This document shows positions 1-19,659 of a stretch of DNA of 64,000 bases, piece after piece. The stretch comes from Trypanosoma brucei. Lineage: Eukaryota. Position 1 is the first letter of the stretch. Each line of letters starts with the position of its first letter. The stretch covers positions 640,001-704,000 of the forward strand of contig CP000066.1 of assembly GCA_000002445.1 (NCBI GenBank), in the 5' to 3' direction. Both the position numbers and the translations under genes were made by a program. The notes beneath the pieces were generated by a model. It saw only the letters and a program-made list of their open reading frames with translations, was not told where the DNA came from and ran no database searches.

Positions 1-906
1 TGTTGGGAGGCGGTTATACGGAGACAATGTCAACGTGCCAAATTCGAGTACGCAGAGATCCACCACATGCCAAAGGTAAAACTATGCGCCATGCTACAAC
101 AATGCATCGAGCTTCAAAACACTTCTCCACTACAAAAATCTCCCCCCAGTTCTGACGCTATGTTTTATTGAGCACAATTTCGTAGATGAGGGCGAGCCCT
201 GGACGTTTATCGCCCACCATCCCACTACCTTATGTAACGTGACGGACAGCAACCGAACAAAAGGGTCGTATCCTTTCGTTTTCTACACATATCACTTTGA
301 ATCCGAGAAGGAGTTCAACAGATGACAAACATAATGCAGTACGTACTAAAACAAAAAACACTTTTTACTTGAATCCCTATATCAACTCACAATCGACAGC
401 ACATATTCGACATTAACTAACTCCATCATTAAAATACACTCCACTCTAACACAGAAACAACCCAATGTGATGCTTAGTTACCATAACAAAGGAATACGCC
501 TCACGTTTCACAAACATGGGTACGAAGTCATTCCACCCTAGTACACACATTTGGTCACCTCACATTAATAACCTGTTTCTTAAACGCGTAAGGCGTTGTT
601 TAAATTTCACGTTGTCATATAATATAATATTCCATACATAATTCTGCCTGCAGAGTCCACACCATATCGACAGCTGCCTTCATTTTGTTTCAGTGCAAAC
701 GCCTAAACCCCTTCTAAAGGAGTCTGGCGTAGTATAAAGATATACAATGCTACAAATACCAGAGCAGCTAGATTGAAACACAGGTGGTGAGGAACTATCG
801 GCATCTGGGGATGAATGACTTCATTCAAATGGGCATGCACGAATGCAGCACCTTTGAAGGGACAAAAACTCGTTTTAGAAAGAAAACTGACAAATAATTT
901 GTACTC

Positions 907-1563
907 TCAGAGAAATAGGAGCAACACTGGAAAAAAAACCTGGTAGATAGGTGGTTGCAGCGGCTGAGATTTGCTTTTCTGCTGTTCCGGGGGGCGAACA
1001 GAGGAAGTTCCGTTACGTTCGCTGCCAAAAGTGGAGGAGACAGTACCTTTATTTTCGGATTTGAGGTGGCCGTCATCCTTAGAGGGTGAACCATTTTCCT
1101 CCTTTTTAGGGGTCGCAGAAACCGAACTACCATTTCTCACCGGCTCTTCAGAAAGCACAGGGCCGTACTCGGATGATGGAGGTGCCTCACCTTTGTTAGA
1201 GGCCTCGTCGCGACTTGAGTCTCCACCCGCTTCCACAACTGGTGAAGCGACTTCGGGTGTTGAGAGCCCAAGGAACTCACTAACCTTTGCGGTTACACAT
1301 CTGTGCGGTGAAAAGCAGGTCAATCCCCCGCCGCAAACGGTACAGTTCCCCTCTGCAGGTGCGCCCGAAGGAACCCTGTGTGCCAGGGTGCAGTTTTTCT
1401 GTGCATACGTCATGAGACGATTCTCCTCGTTTCTAGTTATACGGCTTTCAATTCCCAATACTTCCGTGCACTTACCCACATATCCAATTCTTCCCTCCCA
1501 TACATTCTCACACATGGCCACACGTTGAACGAAACCGAACAGTATTATTGGTAGGCACAGCAT
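907..1563 (-). CDS. Array copy 1: 218-aa predicted secreted/GPI-anchored surface glycoprotein. Signal peptide MLCLPIILFGFVQRVAMC, Cys-containing N-domain, acidic Ser/Glu/Pro-rich stalk with several N-x-S/T sites, hydrophobic C-terminus ...QVFFPVLLLFL
   Basis: ATG confirmed ('cat' at 1561-1563). Complete ORF on the same strand as every other gene. N-terminal hydrophobic signal and C-terminal hydrophobic tail. N-glycosylation sequons NCT, NGSS, NGSP, NGTS. Confidence 0.6.
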   Translation of the reverse strand: MLCLPIILFGFVQRVAMCENVWEGRIGYVGKCTEVLGIESRITRNEENRLMTYAQKNCTLAHRVPSGAPAEGNCTVCGGGLTCFSPHRCVTAKVSEFLGLSTPEVASPVVEAGGDSSRDEASNKGEAPPSSEYGPVLSEEPVRNGSSVSATPKKEENGSPSKDDGHLKSENKGTVSSTFGSERNGTSSVRPPEQQKSKSQPLQPPIYQVFFPVLLLFL

Positions 1564-2420
1564 TTCAGAATTCTACACTGCCTGAGTTGCTCCAACACCA
1601 GCGCAAAGAAAAATAATAAACACCTCATACATAACATATATCATACAGTTATGTGTGTTTATACTTTGTTTCAAAATATATCGTATTGAATACAAATAGC
1701 AGACACATGACACGAAAAAATCCCATTAAGCGTTAACATGACATAAAATACCCTATTCAGATGCAACCGAACAAAAGGGTCGTATCCTTTCATTTTCTAC
1801 GCATATCACTTTTGATCCAAGATACGGTTAAACAGGTGACAAACATAATGCAGTACGTACTAAAACAAAAAACACTTTTTACTTGAATCCCTATATCAAC
1901 TCACAATCGACAACACATATTCGACATTAACTAACTCCATCATTAAAATACACTCCACTCTAACACAGAAACAACCCAATGTGATGCTTAGTTACCATAA
2001 CAAAGGAATACGCCTCACGTTTCACAAACATGGGTACGAAGTCATTCCACCCTAGTACACACATTTGGTCACCTCACATTAATAACCTGTTTCTTAAACG
2101 CGTAAGGCGTTGTTTAAATTTCACGTTGTCATATAATATAATATTCCATACATAATTCTGCCTGCAGAGTCCACACCATATCGACAGCTGCCTTCATCTT
2201 ACTTCCAAACAAACGCCTAAAACTCTTCTAAAGGAGTCTGGCGTAGCATAAAGATATACAATGACGCAAACACCAAAGAAGCTAGATTGAAACACAGGTG
2301 GGGAGGAACTATCGGCATCTGGGGATGAATGACTTCATTCAAATGGGCATGCACGAATGCAGCACCTTTGAAGGGACAAAAACTCGTTTTAGAAAGAAAA
2401 CTGACAAATAATTTGTACTC

Positions 2421-3077
2421 TCAGAGAAATAGGAGCAACACTGAGGAAAACACCTGGTAGATAGGTGGTTGCAGCGGCTGAGATTTGCTTGTCTGCTGTT
2501 CCGGGGGGCGAACAGAGGAAGTTCCGTTACGTTCGCTGCCAAAAGTGGAGGAGACAGTACCTTTATTTTCGGATTTGAGGTGGCCGTCATCCTTAGAGGG
2601 TGAACCATTTTCCTCCTTTTTAGGGGTCGCAGAAACCGAACTACCATTTCTCACCGGCTCTTCAGAAAGCACAGGGCCGTACTCGGATGATGGAGGTGCC
2701 TCACCTTTGTTAGAGGCATCGTCGCGACTTGAGTCTCCACCCGCTTCCACAACTGGTGAAGCGACTTCGGGTGTTGAGAGCCCAAGGAACTCACTAACCT
2801 TTGCGGTTACACATCTGTGCGGTGAAAAGCAGGTCAATCCCCCGCCGCAAACGGTACAGTTCCCCTCTGCAGGTGCGCCCGAAGGAACCCTGTGTGCCAG
2901 GGTGCAGTTTTTCTGTGCATACGTCATGAGACGATTCTCCTCGTTTCTAGTTATACGGCTTTCAATTCCCAATACTTCCGTGCACTTACCCACATATCCA
3001 ATTCTTCCCTCCCATACATTCTCACACATGGCCACACGTTGAACGAAACCGAACAGTATTATTGGTAGGCACAGCAT
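2421..3077 (-). CDS. Array copy 2: 218-aa surface-like protein. Differs from copy 1 at a few residues (DDASNKG, EQQTSKSQ, ...QVFSSVLLLFL)
   Basis: ATG at 3075-3077. Same architecture as copy 1. Identical in protein to copy 3. Confidence 0.6.
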   Translation of the reverse strand: MLCLPIILFGFVQRVAMCENVWEGRIGYVGKCTEVLGIESRITRNEENRLMTYAQKNCTLAHRVPSGAPAEGNCTVCGGGLTCFSPHRCVTAKVSEFLGLSTPEVASPVVEAGGDSSRDDASNKGEAPPSSEYGPVLSEEPVRNGSSVSATPKKEENGSPSKDDGHLKSENKGTVSSTFGSERNGTSSVRPPEQQTSKSQPLQPPIYQVFSSVLLLFL

Positions 3078-3934
3078 TTCAGAATTCTACACTGCCTGAG
3101 TTGCTCCAACACCAGCGCAAAGAAAAATAATAAACACCTCATACATAACATATATCATACAGTTATGTGTGTTTATACTTTGTTTCAAAATATATCGTAT
3201 TGAATACAAATAGCAGACACATGACACGAAAAAATCCCATTAAGCGTTAACATGACATAAAATACCCTATTCAGATGCAACCGAACAAAAGGGTCGTATC
3301 CTTTCATTTTCTACGCATATCACTTTTGATCCAAGATACGGTTAAACAGGTGACAAACATAATGCAGTACGTACTAAAACAAAAAACACTTTTTACTTGA
3401 ATCCCTATATCAACTCACAATCGACAACACATATTCGACATTAACTAACTCCATCATTAAAATACACTCCACTCTAACACAGAAACAACCCAATGTGATG
3501 CTTAGTTACCATAACAAAGGAATACGCCTCACGTTTCACAAACATGGGTACGAAGTCATTCCACCCTAGTACACACATTTGGTCACCTCACATTAATAAC
3601 CTGTTTCTTAAACGCGTAAGGCGTTGTTTAAATTTCACGTTGTCATATAATATAATATTCCATACATAATTCTGCCTGCAGAGTCCACACCATATCGACA
3701 GCTGCCTTCATCTTACTTCCAAACAAACGCCTAAAACTCTTCTAAAGGAGTCTGGCGTAGCATAAAGATATACAATGACGCAAACACCAAAGAAGCTAGA
3801 TTGAAACACAGGTGGGGAGGAACTATCGGCATCTGGGGATGAATGACTTCATTCAAATGGGCATGCACGAATGCAGCACCTTTGAAGGGACAAAAACTCG
3901 TTTTAGAAAGAAAACTGACAAATAATTTGTACTC

Positions 3935-4591
3935 TCAGAGAAATAGGAGCAACACTGAGGAAAACACCTGGTAGATAGGTGGTTGCAGCGGCTGAGATTT
4001 GCTTGTCTGCTGTTCCGGGGGGCGAACAGAGGAAGTTCCGTTACGTTCGCTGCCAAAAGTGGAGGAGACAGTACCTTTATTTTCGGATTTGAGGTGGCCG
4101 TCATCCTTAGAGGGTGAACCATTTTCCTCCTTTTTAGGGGTCGCAGAAACCGAACTACCATTTCTCACCGGCTCTTCAGAAAGCACAGGGCCGTACTCGG
4201 ATGATGGAGGTGCCTCACCTTTGTTAGAGGCATCGTCGCGACTTGAGTCTCCACCCGCTTCCACAACTGGTGAAGCGACTTCGGGTGTTGAGAGCCCAAG
4301 GAACTCACTAACCTTTGCGGTTACACATCTGTGCGGTGAAAAGCAGGTCAATCCCCCGCCACAAACGGTACAGTTCCCCTCTGCAGGTGCGCCCGAAGGA
4401 ACCCTGTGTGCCAGGGTGCAGTTTTTCTGTGCATACGTCATGAGACGATTCTCCTCGTTTCTAGTTATACGGCTTTCAATTCCCAATACTTCCGTGCACT
4501 TACCCACATATCCAATTCTTCCCTCCCATACATTCTCACACATGGCCACACGTTGAACGAAACCGAACAGTATTATTGGTAGGCACAGCAT
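3935..4591 (-). CDS. Array copy 3: 218-aa surface-like protein, identical in protein sequence to copy 2
   Basis: ATG at 4589-4591. 1514 nt from copy 2. Confidence 0.6.
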   Translation of the reverse strand: MLCLPIILFGFVQRVAMCENVWEGRIGYVGKCTEVLGIESRITRNEENRLMTYAQKNCTLAHRVPSGAPAEGNCTVCGGGLTCFSPHRCVTAKVSEFLGLSTPEVASPVVEAGGDSSRDDASNKGEAPPSSEYGPVLSEEPVRNGSSVSATPKKEENGSPSKDDGHLKSENKGTVSSTFGSERNGTSSVRPPEQQTSKSQPLQPPIYQVFSSVLLLFL

Positions 4592-5448
4592 TTCAGAATT
4601 CTACACTGCCTGAGTTGCTCCAACACCAGCGCAAAGAAAAATAATAAACACCTCATACATAACATATATCATACAGTTATGTGTGTTTATACTTTGTTTC
4701 AAAATATATCGTATTGAATACAAATAGCAGACACATGACACGAAAAAATCCCATTAAGCGTTAACATGACATAAAATACCCTATTCAGATGCAACCGAAC
4801 AAAAGGGTCGTATCCTTTCGTTTTCTACACATATCACTTTTGATCCAAGATACGGTTAAACAGGTGACAAACATAATGCAGTACGTACTAAAACAAAAAA
4901 CACTTTTTACTTGAATCCCTATATCAACTCACAATCGACAACACATATTCGACATTAACTAACTCCATCATTAAAATACACTCCACTCTAACACAGCAAC
5001 AACCCAATGTGATGCTTAGTTACCATAACAAAGGAATACGCCTCACGTTTCACAAACATGGGTACGAAGTCATTCCACCCTAGTACACACATTTGGTCAC
5101 CTCACATTAATAACCTGTTTCTTAAACGCGTAAGGCGTTGTTTAAATTTCACGTTGTCATATAATATAATATTCCATACATAATTCTGCCTGCAGAGTCC
5201 ACACCATATCGACAGCTGCCTTCATCTTACTTCCAAACAAACGCCTAAAACTCTTCTAAAGGAGTCTGGCGTAGCATAAAGATATACAATGACGCAAACA
5301 CCAAAGAAGCTAGATTGAAACACAGGTGGGGAGGAACTATCGGCATCTGGGGATGAATGACTTCATTCAAATGGGCATGCACGAATGCAGCACCTTTGAA
5401 GGGACAAAAACTCGTTTTAGAAAGAAAACTGACAAATAATTTGTACTC

Positions 5449-6123
5449 TCAGAGAAATAGGAGCAACACTGGAAAAAAAACCTGGTAGATAGGTGGTTGC
5501 AGCGGCTGAGATTTGCTTTTCTGCTGTTCCGGGGGGCGAACAGAGGAAGTTCCGTTACGTTCGCTGCCAAAAGTGGAGGAGACAGTACCTTTATTTTCGG
5601 ATTTGAGGTGGCCGTCATCCTTAGAGGGTGAACCATTTTCCTCCTTTTTAGGGGTCGCAGAAACCGAACTACCATTTCTCACCGGCTCTTCAGAAAGCAC
5701 AGGGCCGTACTCGGATGATGGAGGTGCCTCACCTTTGTTAGAGGCCTCGTCGCGACTTGAGTCTCCACCCGCTTCCACAACTGGTGAAGCGACTGCGGGT
5801 GTTGGGAGCCCAAGGAACTCACTAACCTTTGCAGTGACACATCTATAATTGAAAGGACAACGCAAGGTTCCCCCGCCACAAACGGTACAGTTCCCGTCAG
5901 TGGTTGCGCCAGATGGTACGCTTCGGATGGGAGTGCAGTTCGCTTCCGCATACTTCACGAGACGATTCTCTTCTGCTACGCCCGCTGGAGCCTTAATTTT
6001 CAGCAAATCCGTACACATATCCACAACTCCAACTCGCGTTCCCCATCCCTTCCCATAAGTAGCAACAATTTGAACCAATCCCGCGAACAGGGTTAATACA
6101 CAGACACACACAGGTCTCGTCAT
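5449..6123 (-). CDS. Array copy 4 (mosaic): 224 aa from the first plausible ATG. Signal peptide MTRPVCVCVLTLFAGLVQIVATYG. The N-terminal Cys domain is divergent (about 50% identity). The C-terminal stalk and tail match copy 1
   Basis: The ORF-track start at 6210 is a TTG. In-frame ATGs lie at 6204 and 6123, and the 6123 one precedes a proper signal peptide. The conserved core CTVCGGG...RCVTAKVSEFLGL is retained. Confidence 0.5.
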   Translation of the reverse strand: MTRPVCVCVLTLFAGLVQIVATYGKGWGTRVGVVDMCTDLLKIKAPAGVAEENRLVKYAEANCTPIRSVPSGATTDGNCTVCGGGTLRCPFNYRCVTAKVSEFLGLPTPAVASPVVEAGGDSSRDEASNKGEAPPSSEYGPVLSEEPVRNGSSVSATPKKEENGSPSKDDGHLKSENKGTVSSTFGSERNGTSSVRPPEQQKSKSQPLQPPIYQVFFPVLLLFL

Positions 6124-7031
6124 TAATCTTTTACTAACATAACAATAAAAGCAAAAAAACTTCTTTGCAGAGCAATTAACTCGCTTTCTCTCATGTTTAA
6201 ACATTGTCAAGTTACCTTTTGTTTAATATACAGAGCCAGTTAACCACTCAGAAAACAACCAGTGAGTATAATCAGCGTCCACAATACTTATCCGTATGGG
6301 AAGAAATGAAATATGAAGTTACGTCTTTTAAAATCTTTATCAAAAGCAGCAGCCAAGCGACCGGAGACTCACATTTATCAAGTGCGAGTAGGGGGCATCT
6401 GTGGTTCAATAACATAAAAACACATGCAGTAACAAGTTTTCGCAGATAAATATTATGGAGTACCACCTATATAAGTCCAAGTCCACACAAAAAAAACCCA
6501 AGCAAAAGCAAATACACAGTAAAGAAATAATTACAAACACATTTGATAGCACCGTCTGTTGATAGCAAATACTTAAACAGCGAAGAAGAAAGACGTTCAA
6601 AGCATTACAAAACACATCGTGGAGCAGTTCTGTAGAAACGATTACAAATGGGAAATAACCAACTCCCACGAAACAGTACATCACTGTAGCCAGTCCATCA
6701 AGAAAAATTGGCAGCGTCTCGGCGCGTGATTCAACTCTTTTCGAACGCTAGACAGCATCCACAACACTAAGCAGTTAGGTACAAATATAGATCACTACAT
6801 AGCAAAAGCAAAATGCGGTAAGTACCGCAAAGGGGTCCCCCATCCTTACGCTGTTCTATTATTTATTTCGCTTCTTCCACTTTATTGCAGTCTACAATTA
6901 TAGGCGCTTTCTCCCATCATATATTAAAGCATAATAGCGCGAGAAAGAACAAAAGGTCATAGATTAACGTATCGAGCTAGTGTGAGGGGTGATGCTCTGA
7001 GGCAGTATTTGTATCTAGTTTAGTGACGGAT

Positions 7032-7949
7032 TTATCCGGTGATAAAGCATACAATTGCGACAAGGAGGTTCTGTATCGCTCCATATCTCACGTTGTTTCC
7101 TTTTTTGTTTTCTGGTTTGCGGTCGATTCTTCCTGTGTTTGATACAATTCCTGCACCTGCTGCAACTGTATCATCCCGTCCGCGCACTGGTTCCTCCCTT
7201 CCTGGGTCTGCATCCTGTTTCCCATTGGTCGTCGTGCCATCTTCTGCAGCATCGCGCTGGTGATCATTCACTGTACCTTTTTCTGGTGAAGATTCCCCTC
7301 GAGGGTGAGTATGCTTCCCTCCCTGAGTTGCTCCTCCCTTTTCTGGTTCCTTTCGGGTCAAGCCCTCACCTCCAGCTCCGTCCTTTTTCCCCGAAGCTCC
7401 CCGCTTCTCCCCAGCAGTTCCCCGCTTTTCCCCCGGACTTTGCTGATCTTCCTTTGGAGTTTCCTCACCTTCCCCCGAAGCTTCCTGCTCCTCCCCCTCA
7501 CTTTTGGGAGCACTGCTCGCTGTCTCTTCGTCGTCCGAACCGCTACCCTTAGTTGTGTCTGAGGGTCCCTGTTCAGACGCGGCAGACTGCTCTACCGTCT
7601 CTTCTGTAGGGACCTGTTGTGTTATACTCCGCCAGTCGGAGTCGGAGCATGTTGTGGCATTGAGTGAATCCTCGCTTGAGTCCTCGTCCGTGCAATTAAG
7701 GGTGTGCAGCCGGTGGCCGTTTCCATGAAAAATGGCGTACACTTTGAGCTTCAGCTTGAAATATCCCTGTGGTTGTCCCTTTCCGATCAGAAGCACAGGA
7801 GTGTTTGTGCAGTTGGCAGGGTGCCACTTGCCCTTCCATCTGCACAGCGCCCCTTCCGCTTCATTATGCAGACAGTCACACCTGAAAGTCACTGCTGAAG
7901 ATCCCAAAACTACACAACTTGCTAGAAACAACGCTGTAAATGTCAACAT
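7032..7949 (-). CDS. 305-aa predicted secreted/membrane protein. Signal peptide, Cys motif (FRCDCLHNEAEGALCRWKGKWHPANCTNT), long acidic Gly/Glu/Lys-rich low-complexity region, C-terminal hydrophobic segment LLVAIVCFITG
   Basis: ATG confirmed at 7947-7949. Compositional architecture resembles a surface protein. No recognisable enzymatic motifs. Confidence 0.45.
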   Translation of the reverse strand: MLTFTALFLASCVVLGSSAVTFRCDCLHNEAEGALCRWKGKWHPANCTNTPVLLIGKGQPQGYFKLKLKVYAIFHGNGHRLHTLNCTDEDSSEDSLNATTCSDSDWRSITQQVPTEETVEQSAASEQGPSDTTKGSGSDDEETASSAPKSEGEEQEASGEGEETPKEDQQSPGEKRGTAGEKRGASGKKDGAGGEGLTRKEPEKGGATQGGKHTHPRGESSPEKGTVNDHQRDAAEDGTTTNGKQDADPGREEPVRGRDDTVAAGAGIVSNTGRIDRKPENKKGNNVRYGAIQNLLVAIVCFITG

Positions 7950-10900
7950 AGAGTGTTAGCTGCCTGTCCTCTACTTGTAAAAATCACTGAAAAAGGGATG
8001 TACTCGGTAAACACAGGGTCCACACAAACGCAAACACACGTTCCTAACAGCTTTCAATTGCACTTACACTCCCCGTTACTCCAGCAGGTTCCACTGGTCG
8101 TCAAATTTAGCAGTAAATTTATTCCTCACGAAGATAAGCTATCACCAATCCACTAATAGGCAATCGGTCACCCTTCTGGTCGACTTCTGTAGACTTACTA
8201 CCCCATAATTAGTTGAAGTTTTTGGGTAAGGCTACCTGCGCCTGAAGTTTTAGAGACCCCGGGAATTTCTAAGTGCATGCGCGAGTTGCATTGCAGCCAC
8301 ACAACCATATATGCCCCGGCGTGCCTGTAAAAAAGACAAACACGTAGTTACTTAACAAGCAGATGTGCTCGCGCACGAATGTCTCCCAGTAAAAACACAC
8401 ACAAAGGTATAACGTGAAACAACAATTCCAAGCTAACTTAGCGGATATGTATTAAGACAAAATAATTAAAGCAGTCATGGTGGAAAGAACTTGAAATATG
8501 GAACTTAAGGGAACACCGTTTCCCCCTTTTTTCTTAAAGATAAACGGTCTGACTTTCCTATTTATCTTCGTTACCGGTTACGTCATTGTCACTCTGAAGC
8601 TTTGTTTCGATTCTGCTTCCCGCTACAACGCCGGCTGTAGCAATAAACCGGCCTCCTCTTAGGCATGCTTGAGCGCTTTTCATTCCCGCTTTTGTTATTC
8701 GCCAAGAAGTGGCTTGACAGGTGTTGGAGTTTCTTTGATCCACCTCAAACGCGGGGTTTCCTTTTTTTTATTCCCTCCAAAAATACGAAGGGGCAACTCG
8801 CCTAGCGGTGATTCCACCCACAAAAGAGAAAGCACACACAACGTAAGTTAGCGTGATGAATAGGGTGTACAAAGTTAATTATACCCTTTTTCCACCTTAC
8901 GTTGCAAAGGTCAGGCATGTCAGTTAGTTAATATATTTTTCACCACCGTCGGAAAGTAATTAAGTACCACTTTAGGCAATCTTTCCCTCTATGTCCGGGG
9001 ATCAATACGACCTTTCACATCTCTCCTCGTCAACACCTTCCCCCTACTGCGCTTTAGTGAGAACAGCACCAACTCAGGTGAATCAACGAAGTAAATACCA
9101 ACAACTATTGGGGACTTGGAAATGTACCTACCTCCGTGAGCGTTACCGATCCTTCAAATCACTGGGTGTTTTTTTTTAAAAAGAGCGGCTGGAACCCATG
9201 GCCCCTCATGTCACCACAAAGCCGAATCTCAGTACTTGTGCGCCCTCATTCACACGTTTAGTTGTTATCATATTAACAGGTTCCAATAAGATGGTACCTT
9301 TCGCGTTACTCTAGGCCCGAAATCGGTTGTGGAATCATTCAGGACCTACCGCCACCGGTGGGATACCTTTCCCGACTCCAAACTTCAGGTTGCAAACTCT
9401 CCGTACCTGCAGAAAGTAGCAGCGCCCCGATAGAAAGTTAGGTTCCATCACCTCTTATCTTTAAATTTGTTTTTATTCACATGCGACGGAGTTTAACTGA
9501 CGAGGCACCAACCCATTCCTTTGTAACTTCAGGGATGATGCCGCTTTCGGCCGCCCTCTACACGACAACCTCTAATTATCCAGAGTAGCACCAATAACAT
9601 ATGCTGTTACCATTTAAAAGAGCATTCAGCATGGATGACTTCCCCCCGATGTCACTAATAATTGAGTAACGCGGTTCCGGAAGTGTTGTGTTACAACTTA
9701 TTCTCTTAGGATGGAACAAACTCCTTCGTGGTAGCACACCTTAGCGGCATCGTGAGATATTCACCACAGCACCAAGTGGGGGAGATTGATTTAGGCGCAT
9801 GAAGTATGGATGTCACTGTGCGGGTTGTACTGTTCAAAAGAGTGGGTTGTCGGCAAAAGGTGTTACAAGCCACACGATGTTACACGAGTAGACGGAAATC
9901 TAATGAGGTGCGTTCAGCTGTTGTGCGCACGTTCGGACAAGAATACGCCAAAGTGAGGCAATAATGTGCACGTGAAGACGGCACTAACGCGTAGATCGTT
10001 TGCCACTTGTATATCATATTTCCCCAGGAGTCCAGCCCAAAGTATTCGTACCGGCTGAAGGCGCACATTAATGAATTTCAACGGATGCATCAACCACAGA
10101 ACTTAGAGAAGGGCTCCGCTACCACTGGTAAATACTAAAGGAGACATTGCCCCTCTCCCAAAGACATAAAACCGTTGCCGAAGGCGCCTCAGAGAATTGC
10201 GATTATAGAGGGAGTAAGCCGGCATGCAACACGTTGGCACTCGCGCGGCTCTCGCAAAGAGTATTTACATTTTATGTGCAATGCAAACTCCTCTCCGTGC
10301 GGATACGCCTTTCACCGTCGACACCATTGGCACTGAGACTTTAGCAGTAATTGTAGAAATGTATAAGCCCCCGTATGTTGCACTTTTATTTATTGACAAT
10401 GTGATACTTCACGCAATCCCGTGCCTGCCCTCCCCATCGTTTTGTTCATTCCGTTTTTAAGCCATAACTGCGGGGCTGTGGTGACAAGGTTCAAAGCGAC
10501 CACCAATAGGAGAGGAAAGATATATACATACATATATATCATCAGGCTTCTTTTGGCCCGAATGCGCCAAGAAACTATTGAGTGTTTCCCCTCGCGTGGC
10601 AAAACCACTTCATGGGGCGATAAACTCCCGAGCTCACTCACGGGCAAAACATTCCAGTAGGAACTTGTAAAATGTGGAATGGAGGAGGAATGACTAGCAA
10701 CCGAGCGGGAAGTTTTTGGCACACTGCTTATTCCCAGCACCATGACCGCTACCGATGGCATTGGACTCACCTTGTTCTTTTACCCCAAAGAACTTTAGCA
10801 GGTACCGTACTGCTTTTATGTTTTAACACAACCGTCGTTCCCCCTATAAACTCCGTTTACCTTCACTCCTTCCGCAGGGAAGCGCAAACGAGCAAATAAC

Positions 10901-12521
10901 CCCCGGTATTTGAGCTTTGCAGATCCCTCTTACGCATATATCTTGCGATGTTGACAACTGCAGCCCGACGACGATAGCGGTTAATTGCTAGTGACACTGG
11001 CTGATTTGGTACTTTATATATATATATAAAGGAAGTTAAACGTCACCGTCTTGCCCTCCGTAACCAGATGATGATGGAGATTAACTCACTGTCAAGCAGG
11101 TTAGATGCGCAACGCAATGCGGGACTCCTCAGTTTAAAAAAAAAAAAAAGCATCTTAGTCTACCACTGAACCCGCGGCAACTTGTTCTGACAAAAACTGA
11201 CCGTGGTGTGTTTCCCGCCATTTATTAGGGGAAAATGTCACGCGAAACCAAAGTAAAGAGGGCAGAAATAACTACTCACCAACCTCTGACCTGCTGAAAA
11301 ATGGTGAGGGACAGAGAATGTAGTTGGATTACTCAGCCAGGGATAACTTGTATTTGTGCTCGCGTCATGTGTTTCAGACTAGAGGTGTCATTTGCACAGA
11401 TAGATTCACATCATTGTTCCAACAGAAAGAGTAAATAAGGGGTGACGAATGATAGGGTGCGAAGGAAGGAATAAATAACTCAGAACCAAACGAAGTATAA
11501 GTTTCGTCAAGACATTTCGTACGACAAGAGTGAAACGTTATAGTCATCAGTGGCTTCATTTGTGGTAGCGGTGGTGCCGATCACTTGTGAGCCCGCCGGT
11601 AGGATGAAGGGTCTTCCACTGAACAATAACATGGCGGCGCGCTTTTCCACACCCAACTTTGTTAGGTCACACACACACGAAACAAATCCAACTGAATGTT
11701 CCATTGCTAAGGGTACAGTAGCAAAATGGGAGGAAATAAGTGCATAATCTGCTGAAGCGCACTACCAGTCCCTGGAATGAAGGTGATTACAGATAACTAA
11801 CTTCAACATACTCGAGCATTCTTTCAGCCATTCGAGCGGCCAATAAGGGAACCGTTGCACTTCCTTCCTTTCCTCCTCCTTCCCCCTATAAATATCGCAC
11901 TGGTAGCGCCCACGGGGATGCCTCACCGTCCCTAGGCGCTGCGGCGTCCCATGAACAATATCATGAACGGTTAAACAAAAACAGAAGTAAAAAAGTGAAC
12001 TTTTTGAATACTGGTGGAGGAAGAGGAAATAACAAGTATTTATGCACGACACAAAAATGATATTGGTACAAGGTTGAAAGCAAAGTGCTTTGGAGACCCA
12101 TCGTTGGGGCGAGGAATTTCTCACCACTCCCATTCAATGTGCACGAATAAACTCCCGCCTGCTCCACACCTTTGTACGCTCATTATCTCGTTCACCTTCT
12201 CTCACATCATCATCATTCCTTTATCATCTCCCTTCATTTATGCTTGCACGACAGCAGAGGTGTCATCCCGCAGAGACACACATACACATACACACACGCA
12301 CACGTATACAAATATCATCTTCAGCATGCGACGGCCAACACAGTTCAGTGGGAGTGAGGAAGACGCTAATCACATTCCCTCCATTTATTCCCCCTTGTCT
12401 TTCTCCCTCAGTTTCCCCTTGCGTATTTCCCTCGTCTACTCTCGTCGCTCCCCAACTTCCATGACTAGTCAATAAAAATAGATAAAATTAAAACAAAAAC
12501 AAAAACAAGACCGACAAACCC

Positions 12522-15500
12522 TCACTTCTGCTCATTTCGCTTTGCAGCGAGCTCGCTCACCCATTTCGCCTTTTTGGCGGCGTACTTTTCCTCGGCAAAT
12601 CGCTTCTGTATTTGCAGCTGAAGTGAATTTAACCGCTCGGCTACTTTCAGCAACCTCGGAGCTCCCGCACTGTAACCTTCCTCCTGTGCTGTAAAAGATT
12701 CATCAGGCATAATGGCTGTTAGAATGCTGGCGGCCGGTAAGTGAGCCTTCCGCACCAGTCCAGCCAAATTGGAAATGAGTTTTTCGGCTCTGTTGAGCAC
12801 CGAGTAGGAAAGAGACTGTGAGAGCCCATTGAGTTCCTCCAGCATCGTGAAGCGGTAGTTCTTCCGAGTGGTGTCAATCTGCGCTTTAACGCGGAGGAAA
12901 TCAGCGAGACAGGCGTTGATGAGAACCTGCGCTCCATCATGACGCCATCCGTCTGATACATCGAGAACGGGAAGCAGACGACGGTCGCAGAAGAGATCGT
13001 CGCGGAGAGAAAAGACAACTTCATCAACAGAAGTGAAGACGTCACCGCAACCACTGATGGCCACAAACGGGTGACGAGCCTTAAACTGAACGGCAGATTC
13101 CTTGAGCGCATCCATTAGTGGGAAATCACCGGCGCCGTTGCCAAATATAAGTTGGTCGCCACCCGTTTCCACGTATGGCAAGCGGGGACCTTCACTCGAT
13201 TCCTCCTCTTCCTCCTCTTCCTGCTCCTTTCCCTTCTCTTCTTTCTCCTTCTTCTCGTCCAACCTTGACGCCAATTGGTTGTAGAAGGCAGAAAGCAGAG
13301 CAAAGAACTCTGTGTTATCAAAAGGACGTACGGAGGGGGAGCAAACATCAACGGGCGACAGTACGACACGATGTTGTGTGGCATTTGTTTTGCCCTCCCA
13401 CACCACGCTTACAGCCGGGTCAAGTAAAGCGGAACGATGAATTTCCAGCGGTACACCACATGTTTGGTGGAATGAGAAGAGATAGGCAAGCAGTTCGGCA
13501 ATAGGTTCATCCGTAACACCGCTGTGTAGCTCCTTATCGAGAGCAGGTGGATAGTGAGCCTCATGGAAAACTCCAGAGGTCAGCATGCGAATAAAGGCGA
13601 ATCCCTCATTACCCACATGGGCCTCCCTGAAAACGTACATGACATCTTGCAACAAGGAACCCAATGAAGAGGGGCGGTCCCGAAAGTGGAGTCCTTGCTT
13701 CTGCAGGAATACAAGGAGCATTTGCAGGTACTCTATGGTGAATCCCTCCATGTTACTTTGTGCAAATGCCTCCCGGCGTTGGAAAAAGAGCGGATTAACA
13801 AACAGCCTCTCGGCCAACTTCTTAACGTGCTGCTTCCATGCGTCCTCGTGCTTCAACGATCTGTGCGTGTTATAATCATATAACTGAAGTAGTCGCAACT
13901 GTGATATGGGGTCCATCTGCACATTCCCCTTAATCACCGTCATGCCGCTCGTCATAAGCCGCTTAATGCGTTGCATGGTAATCCCTAGGAAAATCAAGTG
14001 GCCGAGGTGATCGAGACCACGACGACCCGCACGACCCATCATTTGACGGAACTGCGTCGGATTTAACAGGATGTGATCACCGGCGAGTACAACAGAACGA
14101 CACGGGCTGTGAATGCCCAGCGCCAATGTTTCCGTGGAGAAAATAACACCGCAGTGGCGGCCTCGGAACAGCCTTTCCACGTGACCACGAAGTTTACCCT
14201 TCACACCGGCATGATGCATCCCAATACCCCGCTTTAAAGCGCGAAGAAGGAGGTCCTCCCCCTCACCTTCGCAGTCCTTTATTAGTTCCTTTACGACATC
14301 GGGTTCCACGCTGCACCCCGCCCCAATGAAAGTGAACTCGGGAAGAATATCTGGGACTTCGCAGACCTCCCCCTCATCTTCTTCACCTTCGTCCACATCA
14401 CGCTCGGCCCTCTCCACCTCACCATCCTCATTAGTCCTGAGGCGCTTTTGCTTCAGCGTGGACTCGCGTTGTTTGTGCCTCGCCTCCCGCTCCGCGGCCG
14501 CGCGCTCCACCTTGGCTTTGTAGAGGGCGAATTCCTCAGTTTGCCGGTAGCGCTCCTCTGCCTCTTCCAGCTGCTCCACAACGTACTTCACCAAGTCTTC
14601 ACAGTCTTCGGACTCGAAGCTGAACACAATAGCTGGGCCCATGTCCCTAGCGGAAATCTCGCGCAACACATTCAAACTTTGCTCTCGAATAAATTGCCTT
14701 GATCCCGGAAAAGCCGCCTCCGGCACCGCCTCATCTGACTCTTGCTCACTTCTACCCTCAGTGTTGGTCCTGCTTTGTTGTTGTGCGCGCTTCCTCTCCA
14801 TAGCTGCAACAGCATAGCTACCGAGCGCCGCCTCCTTCTCGTTCAACTTTTGCGCAAAGGCTGCAAGGATGGTCTCCGTTGCATGTTTCATCGTGGAGTT
14901 GAACTCTTTCACCTGTTCATCGGAGGAAATATCCGGCTTCTTCACGCTACTGTTGCTTAGCAGAACCCACTGAGCGAAGGCGTCCTTTACTTCCCGTTCA
15001 TACAGACGTGCACGCTGCTGGGTAATATACAAGTCCGCTTCAAAGTATCTCCCTGGCTCAAGGAGCTTGAGCTTCGACTGCAGCATCTGAACCCGCGGTA
15101 TCGAAGACAACTTCGGCCAAATGATGTTATCGAAGGCGGTTCGCATTTCCCCAAATAATGATACCACCTCACTGGGGACAAGGGTAATGTCAGGAGGGAA
15201 TCCCCGCTGGAGTTGGTCCGTTGTGAGGATGGACAAGGGATGTAAGTCGTGGATGTAGCGGTTCTCATATGTGGTAGTGAGTTTCTTCAAAGACGTACGC
15301 GTATCGGGAGGGGGAAGATAAATGTACTTCTTTATGTCATTCCATCGCTGAATGGTTTGGCCCTCCGATGGAAGCACGTGTACCCTATAGTCACGTGCCT
15401 TAGCGGGTGTGTCAACTGCCTGCTCCTTCAGCCGAGATTGCACGCGATTAAGCCACCCACACAGTTGCTGAGTTTCTCCCAGCGTGGCTGAAAGCGCAAC

Positions 15501-18500
15501 GAAAGGGCAGGGCAGAAGGGCAAGAATGCGTTCCCACACGTCACCATTGCCATTGCTCTCCATGGAGTGAATCTCATCGAGAATTACGTAATCGATAAGG
15601 TCAACCCATTCAGCGTACTTGGGTGAAAGCAACATGGTTTCAAATGTCTCGGGCACAGTCAGAAGTACTTGGCAGGAATCGTGGAACTGATGGTAGTCGG
15701 CCCCACCAAGAACACCATAAATATATTTACCACTATTTTTGTACTCTTTGGACCCATAGCGAGCGCAGACATCGGCCACCGCTTGATTAATCAACGCACG
15801 GGCGGGAGCAAGGTACACAACAATCCGCCTGTTGGAGCGGCGAAGAGTGTTATACATGCAGTAATACGAAACAAACGTTTTCCCAGCTGAAGTTGGGGCA
15901 CACACTACAGCACTCCCGCGATTGTCCACGATGTCAAGGAGCTCTCGCTGCCAACTGTCTGGGTTGAAGGCAACGCGGTAATCGGGTCTTCGAATGACCG
16001 GCCGCTCAAGCAGGTGTCCCATGTGAATGAGTTGCATCATTTCTGGTGTGTCGGTCAGTTGCCGCATCCGCGGGAGCATCGTTGGCCCTAACAAACTCGG
16101 TGCCTTATTTTGCCACTGAGTGATGGCACGGTCCAGCTTGCTGTAGTAATCTTCCCCAAAGTCCAGGTGCCTCAGAGCGGAGCGTACCGTGTCAAGGTCC
16201 TCTTGCGATATTTGCAGACCCTCGTTTTGGACCACCGACAAGACGTGATGGTGGCAATAAAGAAACAGCGGAATGGCTACCGATAGATCCGGTGTTTCCT
16301 TGGCCAAACGGGCACGCTCCCGCTCACTACGCCAGTTTTCGAGACGAAGTTTAACTACGAAGCATTTGATTTTCATCTGGATGTGCAGTTCCACGTAGGA
16401 CAGATACACCCACCGCAGGTACGACGCAGCTTCCGCGCTTGTTATATCCGACTTGAACTTCCGCAGCCCCTCCAGTTCTCCCCATTCTGTGCTCTTATCA
16501 CTTATGGTGGCGACGAGGTTATCAATGACTGTAAAACCGTATGGCACAGCAGTCTCCGTCTTCAAGCCCTTTTTCTTGACAGCGCGGTTCTTTGCCGAGG
16601 GATCTTCAAGCGTGAGCGCAAACTCCGCCTCACGGAGCCCACTGGAAGCCACAAGCAGGCGCCACATGGAAATCTTTAACGAAATATCGCTACCTTCACT
16701 CTTTCCAATCGTGCGATCGGGCTCGAAACCTTTGGTGAACTTTGCCTCCGCGAGTCGCTTGACTGCAGCCAAAAGTTTCTTCACAGCGTCATCACGATCT
16801 TTGTTGGTCGTACGTCCGTGCGTTGGGTCGATGCTGCGGAGGTGATCGTCCATTTGCTTCAACCAACTCTGAATGCTACTTGCGGCGTCTTTCAAATTCT
16901 TCTGCTCACGAATTTCATCATCCTTGCTACGCCCCTTCTTATTACGCTGTCCCTCGTGCTCATTATTCCCCTTTTTCTTCTTCGCGGCCGCACCCTTACC
17001 ACACCCTCCTGCACCTCCTGATCCAGCGGCGTCAGTGCTTTCTTGCTCATTATCCGAGCAAACCAAAGTTAGTGGTTGGGCGGCGAAACCACTTATTCCC
17101 ATGGACTGCGCCTGCTGGAAGGCGTTACGGACGAACTTCGTCTGAAACTCCTGCGCATGTCTTGCTTCCTTCTCAGTCATGTGAATCTTTGCCTCACGCT
17201 CCCCATCAGCATCAGTAACGTCGTTGAACTTGTCGAAAGGAGTGGTTATATCCCACCCAATAAGCTCATTGGCGGCGCCGTAGCCATCGGGTATCGGCCG
17301 CTTTGCCTTGTGTCCCTCCACCTTGAAGGTTTTGGCCAGGTGCTCTACTAACTCGTGTTTAAGGTACGGATATTCCTGAAGCTGCACAGGTTGAGGCTGA
17401 GCTAGCTCAGGGAGGCTCCTAAACGGTGTCGAGGTAATGTCAAGTGTGTCGTCGTCCATAAGATACTGCCAAGTCATGGAGATGTCCCCTACACCGTCTT
17501 CATCCAACAAATGGCTTGGCGCTTCTTCGCGTAGCAATCGCGCAACGGCGTAGAGGAGATGTCCGTCGATAATGTCGAATACCTGACCGCCTCCGTTGTC
17601 GCAGCCAGCGTGTCGAAGTGCGCTAAGGAGAAATGGTGAGATATCCGCAATAAAGTTTTGGAGCACGGCGCTGGGTAATGCCGCCTGGGCCCTGGCCTCG
17701 CAGCTCAGTATTCCCACAATGTAAGCCGTTATAACAAGGGCCTGACAAAGCTGCTGCTCTTGTTCGCTTCGTTCCTTCATGGTTAGATAGGTGCGTACTG
17801 CCGAACAGACAATCTTCTCACGGAATGTCAGGTCCTCGTTCAGCACGTTCAATGATTTTTGGGACAATGTGGGCAACGTCACTTCACGTTCGAGTGATTG
17901 AGCCAACGCGCGCACCTCCGGCTCGATTCCCAGCGAGCGCTCAAGGGTTGAGCCGTCCACGCCCATGGTGAAGACGATCATAGAGTTCTCCCTGTAGATG
18001 ACACGAGACGAGTACGCGACTTTGAGGCGGCGGGAGGCTGCCCAAAGCAGCAGACATCGAATATACATAGCCGCATCATTTCCTATTTCCTCGTCCTCAA
18101 CGATGCTCCTGTACGGCCGACGTGCAGGCACAGCGACGGCACCGCTGGAGTTGACACCTGAGGATGCATTAGTTGTTTCAACCTCCGGATTGACAAAAAA
18201 CTCTTGCAGCGGGTTCAAGGAACCCAGTTGCTCACCGTCAGACATGAAGATAAACTCCGGCTCCCACTCTTTCAGGTAGGTCTCAAAGGCCTCACTATGG
18301 AAACTTGGAAAGGTACGCACGGTGAAGCGGGAGCCGCCTGGGCACTCGCTCGCGGCTGTCAGTGCCAGTCGTAAGTTTTCCCTCATCAGCATTTTCGCAG
18401 GGGCTCGTTCCCACATCCACAACATACTATCGAAGAAAACAATGTGGAATCGGGCCCCGCGGCACTCCATATCGAAGAGCAGCTTTTGTGCATTGTACAT

Positions 18501-19034
18501 GACATGTAATGGCTGTATGAGGTCCCAGTCTACATTTGGTGGTGAGAGGGCAGACATGAACAAGGAATCACCGTCTATAAAAAACATCTCCGTTGCGGCA
18601 AGATGTGCGAACATGTCACAGAGTTCGGGCCGTGCAGTGGCGTAATGGTGCTCCACCGCCGTACGCAGCAGCTCTTCTTCAATCACAGCTCGCATCTTCC
18701 CATCCTTCTGGACGGCAGCAACAAGGAACTTCCACGCATTGCGTTCCTCTTCCTCGTGCTTCAGGGTGCCGACAATTCCACCGGCTGGTGGCTTCCCTCC
18801 GTTTCGGAACGCGGATAACACGGCGTCACATACGCGACTTAATGCGCTGCGGCGACGTGCAACTTGAGCGATTTTCCCCTCATATGAGGCATCAGCCTCT
18901 TCCTGAATCGGAATGTTTTTGGCTTCGAAAATGGCCTGTAGGGCCCCTACGGTATCCATAGGAATTTTTAAAAAATCATCATCCTTGAGACAGTTACCGA
19001 ACAGCAGGTTAAGATCCCGTTGCTGAGTAGCCAT
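12522..19034 (-). CDS. 2170-aa superfamily-2 DExH-box helicase, Ski2-like / DDX60-like. The helicase core sits in the middle of a very large protein
   Basis: ATG confirmed. Motif I CAPTSAGKTFVSYY, motif II VILDEIHSME, motif III ALSATLG, motif VI QMMGRAGRRGLDHLGH. The helicase-C region (IGMHHAGV...VIFSTETLALGIHSP) matches the Ski2/Mtr4/Brr2/DDX60 pattern. Confidence 0.8.
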   Translation of the reverse strand: MATQQRDLNLLFGNCLKDDDFLKIPMDTVGALQAIFEAKNIPIQEEADASYEGKIAQVARRRSALSRVCDAVLSAFRNGGKPPAGGIVGTLKHEEEERNAWKFLVAAVQKDGKMRAVIEEELLRTAVEHHYATARPELCDMFAHLAATEMFFIDGDSLFMSALSPPNVDWDLIQPLHVMYNAQKLLFDMECRGARFHIVFFDSMLWMWERAPAKMLMRENLRLALTAASECPGGSRFTVRTFPSFHSEAFETYLKEWEPEFIFMSDGEQLGSLNPLQEFFVNPEVETTNASSGVNSSGAVAVPARRPYRSIVEDEEIGNDAAMYIRCLLLWAASRRLKVAYSSRVIYRENSMIVFTMGVDGSTLERSLGIEPEVRALAQSLEREVTLPTLSQKSLNVLNEDLTFREKIVCSAVRTYLTMKERSEQEQQLCQALVITAYIVGILSCEARAQAALPSAVLQNFIADISPFLLSALRHAGCDNGGGQVFDIIDGHLLYAVARLLREEAPSHLLDEDGVGDISMTWQYLMDDDTLDITSTPFRSLPELAQPQPVQLQEYPYLKHELVEHLAKTFKVEGHKAKRPIPDGYGAANELIGWDITTPFDKFNDVTDADGEREAKIHMTEKEARHAQEFQTKFVRNAFQQAQSMGISGFAAQPLTLVCSDNEQESTDAAGSGGAGGCGKGAAAKKKKGNNEHEGQRNKKGRSKDDEIREQKNLKDAASSIQSWLKQMDDHLRSIDPTHGRTTNKDRDDAVKKLLAAVKRLAEAKFTKGFEPDRTIGKSEGSDISLKISMWRLLVASSGLREAEFALTLEDPSAKNRAVKKKGLKTETAVPYGFTVIDNLVATISDKSTEWGELEGLRKFKSDITSAEAASYLRWVYLSYVELHIQMKIKCFVVKLRLENWRSERERARLAKETPDLSVAIPLFLYCHHHVLSVVQNEGLQISQEDLDTVRSALRHLDFGEDYYSKLDRAITQWQNKAPSLLGPTMLPRMRQLTDTPEMMQLIHMGHLLERPVIRRPDYRVAFNPDSWQRELLDIVDNRGSAVVCAPTSAGKTFVSYYCMYNTLRRSNRRIVVYLAPARALINQAVADVCARYGSKEYKNSGKYIYGVLGGADYHQFHDSCQVLLTVPETFETMLLSPKYAEWVDLIDYVILDEIHSMESNGNGDVWERILALLPCPFVALSATLGETQQLCGWLNRVQSRLKEQAVDTPAKARDYRVHVLPSEGQTIQRWNDIKKYIYLPPPDTRTSLKKLTTTYENRYIHDLHPLSILTTDQLQRGFPPDITLVPSEVVSLFGEMRTAFDNIIWPKLSSIPRVQMLQSKLKLLEPGRYFEADLYITQQRARLYEREVKDAFAQWVLLSNSSVKKPDISSDEQVKEFNSTMKHATETILAAFAQKLNEKEAALGSYAVAAMERKRAQQQSRTNTEGRSEQESDEAVPEAAFPGSRQFIREQSLNVLREISARDMGPAIVFSFESEDCEDLVKYVVEQLEEAEERYRQTEEFALYKAKVERAAAEREARHKQRESTLKQKRLRTNEDGEVERAERDVDEGEEDEGEVCEVPDILPEFTFIGAGCSVEPDVVKELIKDCEGEGEDLLLRALKRGIGMHHAGVKGKLRGHVERLFRGRHCGVIFSTETLALGIHSPCRSVVLAGDHILLNPTQFRQMMGRAGRRGLDHLGHLIFLGITMQRIKRLMTSGMTVIKGNVQMDPISQLRLLQLYDYNTHRSLKHEDAWKQHVKKLAERLFVNPLFFQRREAFAQSNMEGFTIEYLQMLLVFLQKQGLHFRDRPSSLGSLLQDVMYVFREAHVGNEGFAFIRMLTSGVFHEAHYPPALDKELHSGVTDEPIAELLAYLFSFHQTCGVPLEIHRSALLDPAVSVVWEGKTNATQHRVVLSPVDVCSPSVRPFDNTEFFALLSAFYNQLASRLDEKKEKEEKGKEQEEEEEEESSEGPRLPYVETGGDQLIFGNGAGDFPLMDALKESAVQFKARHPFVAISGCGDVFTSVDEVVFSLRDDLFCDRRLLPVLDVSDGWRHDGAQVLINACLADFLRVKAQIDTTRKNYRFTMLEELNGLSQSLSYSVLNRAEKLISNLAGLVRKAHLPAASILTAIMPDESFTAQEEGYSAGAPRLLKVAERLNSLQLQIQKRFAEEKYAAKKAKWVSELAAKRNEQK

Positions 19035-19659
19035 GCACTGCCTTACTCACCTTTCACCTTCTTTCAGTTCCCTTTTTCTCCTTCCCTGAATTTTACCCTT
19101 TTCTCTTGTTCGCTATATAAAAACTATAACCTGAGATTTCTCTTTTATATGCCTGCTTTTTGTTCTGCTTCTTAGGATCACTTAGTTAGTTTATTTTTTT
19201 TATTTTATTTTTGTTCTGTGCGTGTATTTCACCTTTGTTAGCTAAATTTCTGACAGATAATGTGAGCAGAAAGAAGGAAAAAGGATTAAGCACTACGTCC
19301 ATCTCATGGTATTACCGGCGCGCAACTTAAACATTCCGCATTTTTTATGCAAAGGAATTTCAAGTATGCCGTGGATAAGCAAACACACGAACACAGGGAA
19401 GGAGAGACCGTCGCAGCATACACAACTGCGTGCGAAATGCAAAGGAGCGGCAAGAAAAGAAAAATGAAACAACACCGACAAAAACAGAAGACGACAAACG
19501 TCAACCATGGATTGGGTAGCCGCAATATTATAAAAAGTTATGGCCCTCACGCCTTCCTGCCGAGACAAGTGTGGATTTTCATCGCAGGTTGGAGGTCGAC
19601 TACGAAAGTCTCGTACGACACCACTGCAGCGTCGTTTGTCTCCCAGTGTGCCGCCAGTC

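Follow-up and report, generated by a model that had tools for sequence, protein, structure and literature searches.

A 4.6-kb ORF-free spacer behind the DDX60-like helicase gene of Trypanosoma brucei as the probable front edge of a base J/H3.V-marked attenuation zone

Why does a transcription unit of Trypanosoma brucei hold 4572 bp without a credible open reading frame (ORF)? The spacer in question lies on chromosome 3 of T. brucei brucei TREU927, between the stop codon of the DDX60-like helicase gene Tb927.3.2600 (12522; hereafter DDX60) and the start of a gene for a 305-aa protein, Tb927.3.2590 (7949). We analyzed it within a window of 64,000 nt, i.e. the whole stretch of DNA under study, to which all plain coordinates refer. 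In the usual account, trypanosomes do not control transcription gene by gene, and termination sites inside transcription units, which control genes of the surface-antigen type, are the main known exception. [quoted passage not shown] The locus, the lncRNA and the dependence on base J and H3.V have already been published, and current views are not overturned. At this locus, one such boundary can be read from the letters themselves: conserved housekeeping genes, then a 4.6-kb lncRNA spacer, then a lineage-specific, fast-evolving and low-expressed surface cluster. Added here are a short 3' untranslated region (UTR) of the DDX60 mRNA, an overlap between the RNA-processing phenotype of DRBD3/PAP1 and the chromatin-termination phenotype, and a probable ancestral unit end directly after DDX60, with the repressed cluster and the spacer joined at the former convergent switch.

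12522 to 19034, minus strand: DDX60-like helicase gene Tb927.3.2600, 2170 aa, assigned by Pfam and identical to XP_843853.1.
7950 to 12521, minus strand: ORF-free spacer between Tb927.3.2600 and Tb927.3.2590, 4572 bp, GC content 0.455.
7032 to 7949, minus strand: Tb927.3.2590, 305 aa, XP_843852.1, with a signal peptide and a hydrophobic C-terminus.

All ORFs of at least 180 aa in the window are carried by the minus strand and occur on either side of the spacer; because genes of the same strand flank it on both sides, the spacer is situated inside a transcription unit. The original prediction, made from the letters alone, had placed the stretch among spacers of 0.2–1.5 kb, which agrees with the 421–1438 bp measured for the remaining 18 gaps between coding sequences, and the spacer is 3.2 times as long as the next largest of them. 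[quoted passage not shown] Inside this window, the length of the spacer is unusual.

The evidence that carries the attenuation reading comes from published work on base J. Blocking the synthesis of base J increases Tb427.03.2590 by a factor of 2 or more, a result confirmed by reverse transcription quantitative PCR after treatment with dimethyloxalylglycine (DMOG), and it was proposed that base J upstream of genes within a unit causes early termination by RNA polymerase II (Reynolds 2014, PMC4150806). Figure 3 of Reynolds 2016 (PMC4721609) presents chromosome 3 from 617 to 670 kb, representing the convergent strand switch region (cSSR) 3.3, where base J and H3.V are found together at an in-unit termination site; only genes within the peak or downstream of it were de-repressed, and read-through was detected by strand-specific RT-PCR spanning the site. 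This region is very probably the locus studied here. The S1/S4 lists of the same paper assign Tb427.03.2500, 2530, 2540, 2580 and 2590 to one transcription unit and flag both base J and H3.V at a distance of up to 10 kb from every one of them, and Tb427.03.2600 is absent from these lists of changed genes. The values reported there, in reads per kilobase per million (RPKM) for wild type, wild type with DMOG, H3.V knockout, and H3.V knockout with DMOG, respectively, are as follows.

Tb427.03.2590: 10.2, 18.0, 20.1, 45.6.
Tb427.03.2580: 0.73, 1.09, 5.46, 14.6.
Tb427.03.2540: 0.34, 0.68, 4.10, 8.28.
Tb427.03.2530: 0.80, 0.70, 2.20, 2.60.
Tb427.03.2500: 1.59, 1.29, 2.61, 3.92.

The knockout of H3.V thus raised the five genes by 1.6- to 11.9-fold, and the addition of DMOG raised them further (PMC4721609). 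The repressed domain extends from Tb927.3.2590 to Tb927.3.2500 and is made up of T. brucei-specific genes of the surface type, genes related to variant surface glycoproteins (VSG), and genes resembling expression site-associated genes (ESAG-like). DDX60 is the last gene in the conserved and constitutively expressed part of its transcription unit and the last one not listed as changed after loss of base J or H3.V. Since 2590 responds and 2600 does not, attenuation would begin, under the read-through model of the authors, between the DDX60 poly(A) site and Tb927.3.2590, that is, inside the spacer. The original prediction had offered four candidate explanations, unranked and with no mechanism named. 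Two of them, a boundary element setting the surface-gene cluster apart and an lncRNA, are supported, the boundary element being the best supported in view of the de-repression from 2590 onward (PMC4150806, PMC4721609); the other two, a long 3' UTR and a retroposon or pseudogene remnant, are not.

In-unit termination sites that depend on base J and H3.V are known from chromosome 5 upstream of Tb927.5.3990/4000, from cSSR 7.3 (the RHS cluster), and from cSSR 7.7 (Reynolds 2014, 2016; Kieft 2020). The present locus shares with them the same-strand genes beyond the site, which are weakly expressed and VSG-related, ESAG-like or species-specific; their de-repression on loss of base J, which is stronger on loss of H3.V and additive; and an upstream gene that is unaffected, or at this locus not listed as changed. 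It differs from them in that a 4.5-kb ORF-free spacer with an annotated lncRNA precedes the repressed genes, in that attenuation of the first downstream gene is mild (about 10 RPKM) and its transcript is enriched in bloodstream forms, and in that the repressed domain takes in five listed genes or more, beyond the final one or two.

A second set of published data concerns RNA interference (RNAi) against DRBD3 in bloodstream forms (PMC12592628). The log2 changes along the unit were −0.55 for 2600, +1.49 for the spacer lncRNA, +1.47 for 2590, +3.65 for 2580, +4.40 for 2550, +4.91 for 2540 and +5.77 for 2500, those of 2540 and 2500 being the strongest among the rows listed from Table S2. Also near the top of these rows stood genes of known internal termination loci, namely Tb927.5.3990, the RHS7 genes Tb927.7.1960/1980, and the atypical VSG gene Tb927.7.6540. 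Tb927.5.3990 is the termination example of Kieft 2020 (PMC7055916), and the numbering range suggests that Tb927.7.1960/1980 belong to the RHS cluster at cSSR 7.3. The DRBD3 paper, which attributes the phenotype largely to reduced PAP1, is silent on base J, H3.V and termination (PMC12592628). The mRNAs most strongly up-regulated after DRBD3 RNAi overlap the sets de-repressed by loss of base J/H3.V or of PNUTS (PMC12592628, PMC4721609, PMC7055916). These data suggest that chromatin-based termination may share its target domains with RNA processing or surveillance.

Put together, the attenuation reading would work as follows. Approximately 0.35–0.45 kb past the stop codon, the DDX60 mRNA would be cleaved and polyadenylated, in coupling with the polypyrimidine/AG signal of 12036–11973. 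Polymerase II entering the spacer would then meet base J/H3.V chromatin and stop progressively, with the consequence that genes further on receive less transcription. Ordinary polypyrimidine/AG signals, most of them in the proximal 2 kb, would serve for trans-splicing and polyadenylation of the transcript leaking into the spacer, and the product would be at least one non-coding RNA, annotated as KS17gene_4802a. Removal of base J, H3.V or DRBD3 would lead to more read-through or RNA accumulation, with a fold-change that grows with distance from the spacer.

Several points weigh against this reading. The match with cSSR 3.3 rests on gene lists and on an approximate position in strain 427 coordinates, and the base J/H3.V flags resolve only to 10 kb, which leaves room for a peak over the surface genes, not in the spacer. 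Wild-type cells still express Tb927.3.2590 at about 10 RPKM (PMC4721609), so any termination in the spacer is partial. No terminator-like sequence feature (G-quadruplex enrichment, inverted repeat, or tRNA gene) was found in the spacer. The DRBD3 effect could be post-transcriptional, and the end of the DDX60 3' UTR described below is approximate, as none of the transcript contigs that delimit it ends in poly(A).

It is also conceivable that the spacer is passive, neutral filler, that the boundary lies further downstream over the surface-gene cluster, and that the lncRNA is processing noise. We aligned the region with T. b. gambiense, obtaining a colinear alignment of 26.5 kb that was 98.2% identical. 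The substitution rate was 0.90% in the spacer, compared with 0.46% in DDX60 overall, about 1.06% (23 of 2171) at DDX60 third codon positions, and 0.50–0.66% in two other intergenic regions. By this comparison the spacer appears to evolve overall at about the neutral rate, as filler should, and the spacer displayed neither a structure signal nor a sequence motif. In addition, the steepest fall of wild-type expression occurs between 2590 (10 RPKM) and 2580 (0.7 RPKM), not ahead of 2590. Against this stands the behavior of Tb427.03.2590 itself, for which the increase was 1.8-fold with DMOG, 2.0-fold on knockout of H3.V, and 4.4-fold when the two were combined, and 2600 was not listed; under read-through, some attenuation must therefore occur upstream of 2590 and thus in the spacer. 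Furthermore, knock-down of DRBD3 shifts the lncRNA and 2590 equally. We consider it unlikely that the spacer is mere filler.

Identifiers of the KS17gene type belong to the Ksplice annotation of Guegan 2022. One of these RNAs, KS17gene_4802a, has Tb927.3.2600 as its 5' neighbor and Tb927.3.2590 as its 3' neighbor (PMC12592628 Table S9), so that the lncRNA that had been put forward as a candidate corresponds to a published annotation. From the flanking-gene annotation, the interval that necessarily holds it can be given.

7950 to 12088, minus strand: interval necessarily holding KS17gene_4802a, from PMC12592628 Tables S2/S9.

To be accepted as Ksplice lncRNAs, RNAs had to bear both a spliced leader and a poly(A) tail, to exceed 200 nt, to have low coding potential, and to show little contact with ribosomes and no peptide products (PMC9200285). 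Low coding potential in the sense of Guegan 2022 was also what we found for the spacer by ORF statistics, codon scores and Pfam. Exact look-ups of the spacer ORFs for RNA-seq contigs returned nothing or the gambiense chromosome only.

The annotation raises the question of whether the RNA is functional, as a regulator of the adjacent surface genes or of differentiation comparable to grumpy (KS17gene_3137a) or TblncRNA-23. With these lncRNAs it shares the intergenic position, the strand of the unit, the annotated spliced leader and poly(A) tail, the low coding potential, and the response to DRBD3. A function would be in keeping with annotation under criteria that demand a spliced leader and poly(A) and with the co-regulation of the lncRNA and its 3' neighbor on DRBD3 RNAi. 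The distribution of substitutions between brucei and gambiense is also uneven: of 41 in the spacer, approximately 30 fall in 7950–9950 and only 3 in the 1.75-kb block 9950–11700, for which the mean rate of the spacer predicts about 16. This pattern may reflect constraint or haplotype history, the latter being a possible cause of low divergence between two very close subspecies. Other results speak against a function. Rfam 15, including the trypanosome small nucleolar RNAs (snoRNAs), gave no match at the gathering score in the whole window and chance-level matches only over the spacer at E<=10, the best E-value there (0.27) being that of an unrelated bacterial small RNA model over the (TA)n tract. 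A scan of the spacer for tRNA genes found none. When 31 consecutive 150-nt windows of the sense strand were folded, the mean z-score was −0.16 (range −2.43 to +2.35), which looks random and gives no signal of structure. In the other trypanosomes examined, the syntenic position yielded no counterpart, and the literature examined holds no functional data for KS17gene_4802a. Unlike grumpy and TblncRNA-23, the spacer lncRNA has no embedded snoRNA or Rfam family and no demonstrated function, and its place is a termination zone and not the space between a pair of normally expressed genes. A regulatory role for it is, in our judgment, quite improbable.

A C/D snoRNA-like outline was noticed at 11478–11548 on the minus strand, where a UGAUGA box is followed by a CUGA box approximately 65 nt on. 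The pair has neither an Rfam match nor a terminal stem, and such pairs are fairly frequent by chance.

Transcript assemblies bear on where the DDX60 mRNA ends. The exact DDX60 protein was encoded by four contigs from four sequencing runs in a public assembly collection. One of them (L001) starts with 14 non-genomic nucleotides joined at window position 19250, which we take to be the 3' end of the T. brucei spliced leader; because this contig bears the spliced leader, the DDX60 contigs are regarded as mRNA assemblies. The 3' ends of L001–L004 lie at window positions 12120, 12089, 12173 and 12299, respectively, i.e. 223–433 nt past the DDX60 stop codon. Three of the four traverse the (TG)n tract, and the ends are therefore not repeat artefacts. 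The DDX60 3' UTR is thus short, at least 433 nt, with no contig longer.

12089 to 12521, minus strand: minimum extent of the DDX60 3' UTR from the contig ends, including a T-rich part (12510–12474), a G-rich part (12390–12453), and the (TG)n tract (12276–12303).

These ends bear directly on a further candidate of the original prediction, according to which the DDX60 mRNA has a single long regulatory 3' UTR that takes up the whole spacer. T. brucei does have multi-kilobase regulatory 3' UTRs, which likewise present as long ORF-free sequence just after a coding sequence within a unit, and some annotated lncRNAs are partly built into adjacent UTRs (PMC12592628). In contrast to such cases, the DDX60 assemblies stop approximately 0.43 kb after the stop codon, and all four do so within 433 nt of it although three cross the (TG)n tract. 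A strong polypyrimidine/AG signal follows directly after the contig ends, and loss of DRBD3 moves DDX60 and the lncRNA in opposite directions (log2 −0.55 and +1.49, respectively). A single long DDX60 3' UTR was rejected on the contig ends, and we regard it as extremely improbable.

The G-rich block at 12390–12453 (minus strand) fits a G-quadruplex loosely, with loops of up to 12–20 nt. It is not distinctive, since similar motifs occur elsewhere in the window, and a G-quadruplex scan showed no enrichment in the spacer.

We predicted splice sites as a polypyrimidine tract followed by the first AG. The predictor was calibrated on the DDX60 acceptor and reproduced it at exactly 19250. The signals that matter for the spacer are given below in the order in which they would be transcribed.

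19250 to 19285, minus strand: spliced-leader acceptor of DDX60 (19250), polypyrimidine tract 19285–19268 plus AG, supported by the junction of contig L001.
11973 to 12036, minus strand: two-part polypyrimidine tract (12036–12016 and 11999–11973), with acceptors predicted after 12011, 12000 and 11939.
11424 to 11475, minus strand: strongest polypyrimidine tract of the spacer, 52 nt, score 25, with acceptors predicted after 11379 and 11359.
11136 to 11150, minus strand: C followed by 14 T in the sense strand (A14 in the plus strand, 11136–11149), then AG, with an acceptor predicted after 11128.
7999 to 10507, minus strand: distal 2.5 kb of the spacer, polypyrimidine-poor, best score 11.
7987 to 7998, minus strand: predicted spliced-leader acceptor of Tb927.3.2590, a short tract plus AG, giving a 5' UTR of approximately 38 nt.

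The signal at 12036–11973 lies 55–140 nt downstream of three of the four DDX60 contig ends. From the known coupling between polyadenylation and downstream trans-splicing, it would be tied to DDX60 polyadenylation. The strong tracts of the spacer are at 12510–12474, 12036–11973, 11740–11709, 11475–11424, 11318–11250, 11150–11136, 10690–10669 and 10520–10508. Tracts upstream of the conserved genes of the window score 13–39, and spacer tracts of that strength are proximal only, although the sample is too small for the distal depletion to be statistically secure. That these polypyrimidine/AG signals are the ones used in the spacer is an inference.

Depletion of DRBD3 de-represses just the domain that base J/H3.V controls. 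Together with the uneven distribution of these signals, this brings up a further possibility, namely that RNA processing in the spacer is mechanistically coupled to early termination, which would make the spacer a working 'termination runway' and not filler. Proximal cleavage and polyadenylation would be followed by 2.5 kb with few trans-splice signals, leaving the nascent RNA unprotected; such RNA might promote release of the polymerase in a torpedo-like manner or be degraded by nuclear surveillance. We think this coupling rather doubtful.

The attenuation reading further supposes that the spacer is genuine non-coding DNA, and this is what we found. The longest ORF in the spacer has 153 aa; it has a GTG start, runs antisense, and in part consists of a TH repeat translated from the (CA)n tract. 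ORFs with an ATG start reach at most 123 aa. Compared with 500 first-order Markov simulations of the spacer sequence, the longest stop-free stretch was not exceptional (155 codons vs 133 ± 26 simulated, p = 0.19), and stop-free stretches reaching 60 or 100 codons were about as numerous as in the simulation (p = 0.20 and 0.37, respectively). A codon log-odds model trained on 14 coding sequences of the window gave means of −0.31 to −0.45 in all six frames of the spacer, resembling other intergenic regions, and +0.13 to +0.28 per codon in true coding frames, including three surface-type genes that were not in the training set. No stop-free stretch of at least 45 aa in any of the six frames of the spacer matched Pfam at E<=1. 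The description of the stretch as ORF-free was thus confirmed, its ORF lengths and codon scores being those of chance, and the six-frame check for decayed coding sequence that had been called for came out negative.

In annotations, the TREU927 protein accessions run consecutively from the helicase across the spacer, which means that no protein gene is annotated within it. The T. b. gambiense annotation places three ORFs (112, 123 and 123 aa) in the counterpart of the spacer, and the 123-aa ORF at 10390–10761 is labelled 'hypothetical protein, unlikely' there. We also searched a collection of 5.8 billion proteins with the spacer ORFs concatenated, and discarded the outcome as a false negative because the search missed the exact 123-aa ORF known to be in the collection. 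Negatives from a word-indexed protein search with a long, X-joined composite query are, by this observation, untrustworthy.

The (TA)n, poly(A) and (CA)n-like tracts that had been noticed were all located in the spacer; besides the A14 run given above, a tract scan returned the following.

11015 to 11028: (TA)7.
12276 to 12303: (AC)n in the plus strand, i.e. (TG)n in the sense strand.
8395, 8833 and 11668: short (CA)n tracts.
8762 and 9169: runs of 8–9 T.

The same searches address the idea that the spacer is a decayed gene or the remnant of a retroposon without long terminal repeats (ingi, RIME, DIRE or SIDER). These elements are ORF-poor intergenic insertions with A-rich tails, and the end of a transcription unit would be a plausible place for insertion. 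The central 2 kb of the spacer has a composition (GC 0.47, with purines and pyrimidines balanced) between that of coding and typical intergenic sequence, which would also fit a remnant. In contrast to ingi, RIME, DIRE and SIDER, the spacer has no reverse-transcriptase or endonuclease remnant among its stop-free stretches of at least 45 aa (Pfam, E<=1), lacks a target-site duplication around its A14 run, and is present only once in the window. A blastn comparison of the spacer with itself and with the rest of the 64-kb window found the (CA)n tract only, with no internal repeat, and no inverted repeat was found in the spacer. The A14 run has no flanking duplication of at least 9 bp, and it is therefore probably not the tail of a retroposon. 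A search of the spacer for a 5' signature of retroposons found nothing, which is a weak test. No match to the spacer was obtained by tblastn with Tb927.3.2590, the proteins of the neighboring tandem array, or the genes that follow DDX60 in T. cruzi and T. theileri. With its ORF lengths and codon scores also random-like, the spacer gave this candidate of the original prediction no support from Pfam, tblastn, repeats or target-site duplications; we rejected it and consider an origin as a remnant very improbable.

How the spacer may have come to lie within a transcription unit is suggested by synteny. T. cruzi, T. grayi and T. theileri retain the order of a protein of approximately 2000 aa, a PGAP1-like hydrolase and DDX60. 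In T. cruzi, the next gene is on the opposite strand and 466 bp from DDX60 (contig L006, 16525–16991), and in L. infantum it is 2.3 kb away, again on the opposite strand (contig L009, 16633–18894), both arrangements being convergent strand switches. The genes that follow DDX60 in T. theileri (contig L007, 16498–25882) are small, lineage-specific and of the same strand, and one of them has a signal-peptide-like N-terminus. Because a convergent switch follows DDX60 in T. cruzi and L. infantum, the position after DDX60 appears to be an old unit end, and in the ancestor DDX60 probably closed its unit, ahead of a convergent strand switch. In T. brucei, the spacer and the surface-type genes would then probably be lineage-specific additions at the former end of a transcription unit, which fits a cluster lying in termination-type chromatin. 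The check on conservation that had been proposed earlier was therefore answered in part: the neighborhood of DDX60 is conserved, and a counterpart of the spacer at the syntenic position was not detected in the other trypanosomatids examined. The first convergent gene of T. cruzi, used as a query, matched T. cruzi and T. conorhini only, with no match in T. brucei.

The site after DDX60 seems to be a recurrent place for lineage-specific gene gain. The Leishmania orthologue of DDX60 is also on chromosome 3.

The flanking genes differ in their rate of change. The helicase, which is named Tb927.3.2600 and DDX60 in PMC10639054, has a DDX60-type PIN-like domain, a DEAD domain and a Helicase_C domain according to Pfam, and shows only 7 differences at first and second codon positions between brucei and gambiense in 6513 nt. 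The protein of Tb927.3.2590 is approximately 90% identical between the two (7032–7949 compared with 21101–22018 of the gambiense contig L005) and thus fast evolving, the differences being indels of 7-residue repeat units and about 16 point replacements. This pattern suggests diversifying selection, or relaxed constraint, on a surface protein of bloodstream forms. In the T. b. gambiense annotation the gene is described as 'T. brucei spp.-specific protein', and an exact look-up of the 305-aa protein among public assembly contigs gave no match.

The surface-type genes also differ from the conserved genes in their predicted processing signals. Their tracts (1605–1620, 3119–3134, 4633–4648 and 7989–7998) score 10, in comparison with 13–39 for the conserved genes (e.g. 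34178–34236 and 53121–53213). Such weak tracts may act as an extra brake, at the level of processing, on the lineage-specific surface-type genes.

Beyond Tb927.3.2590, the cluster continues with a tandem array that belongs to the repressed domain and was described earlier by Jackson.

907 to 6204, minus strand: tandem array Tb927.3.2550–2580, three 218-aa copies and a divergent 251-aa copy, with a period of 1514 bp.

The 251-aa copy is XP_843851 (Tb927.3.2580), and the 218-aa copies are XP_843848–50 (Tb927.3.2550–2570). Within 825–6210 the 218-aa genes are 98–100% identical to each other, and the fourth copy (Tb927.3.2580) is 76% identical and has an extended N-terminus. Every unit of the array also contains an antisense ORF of 185 aa, which is probably spurious.

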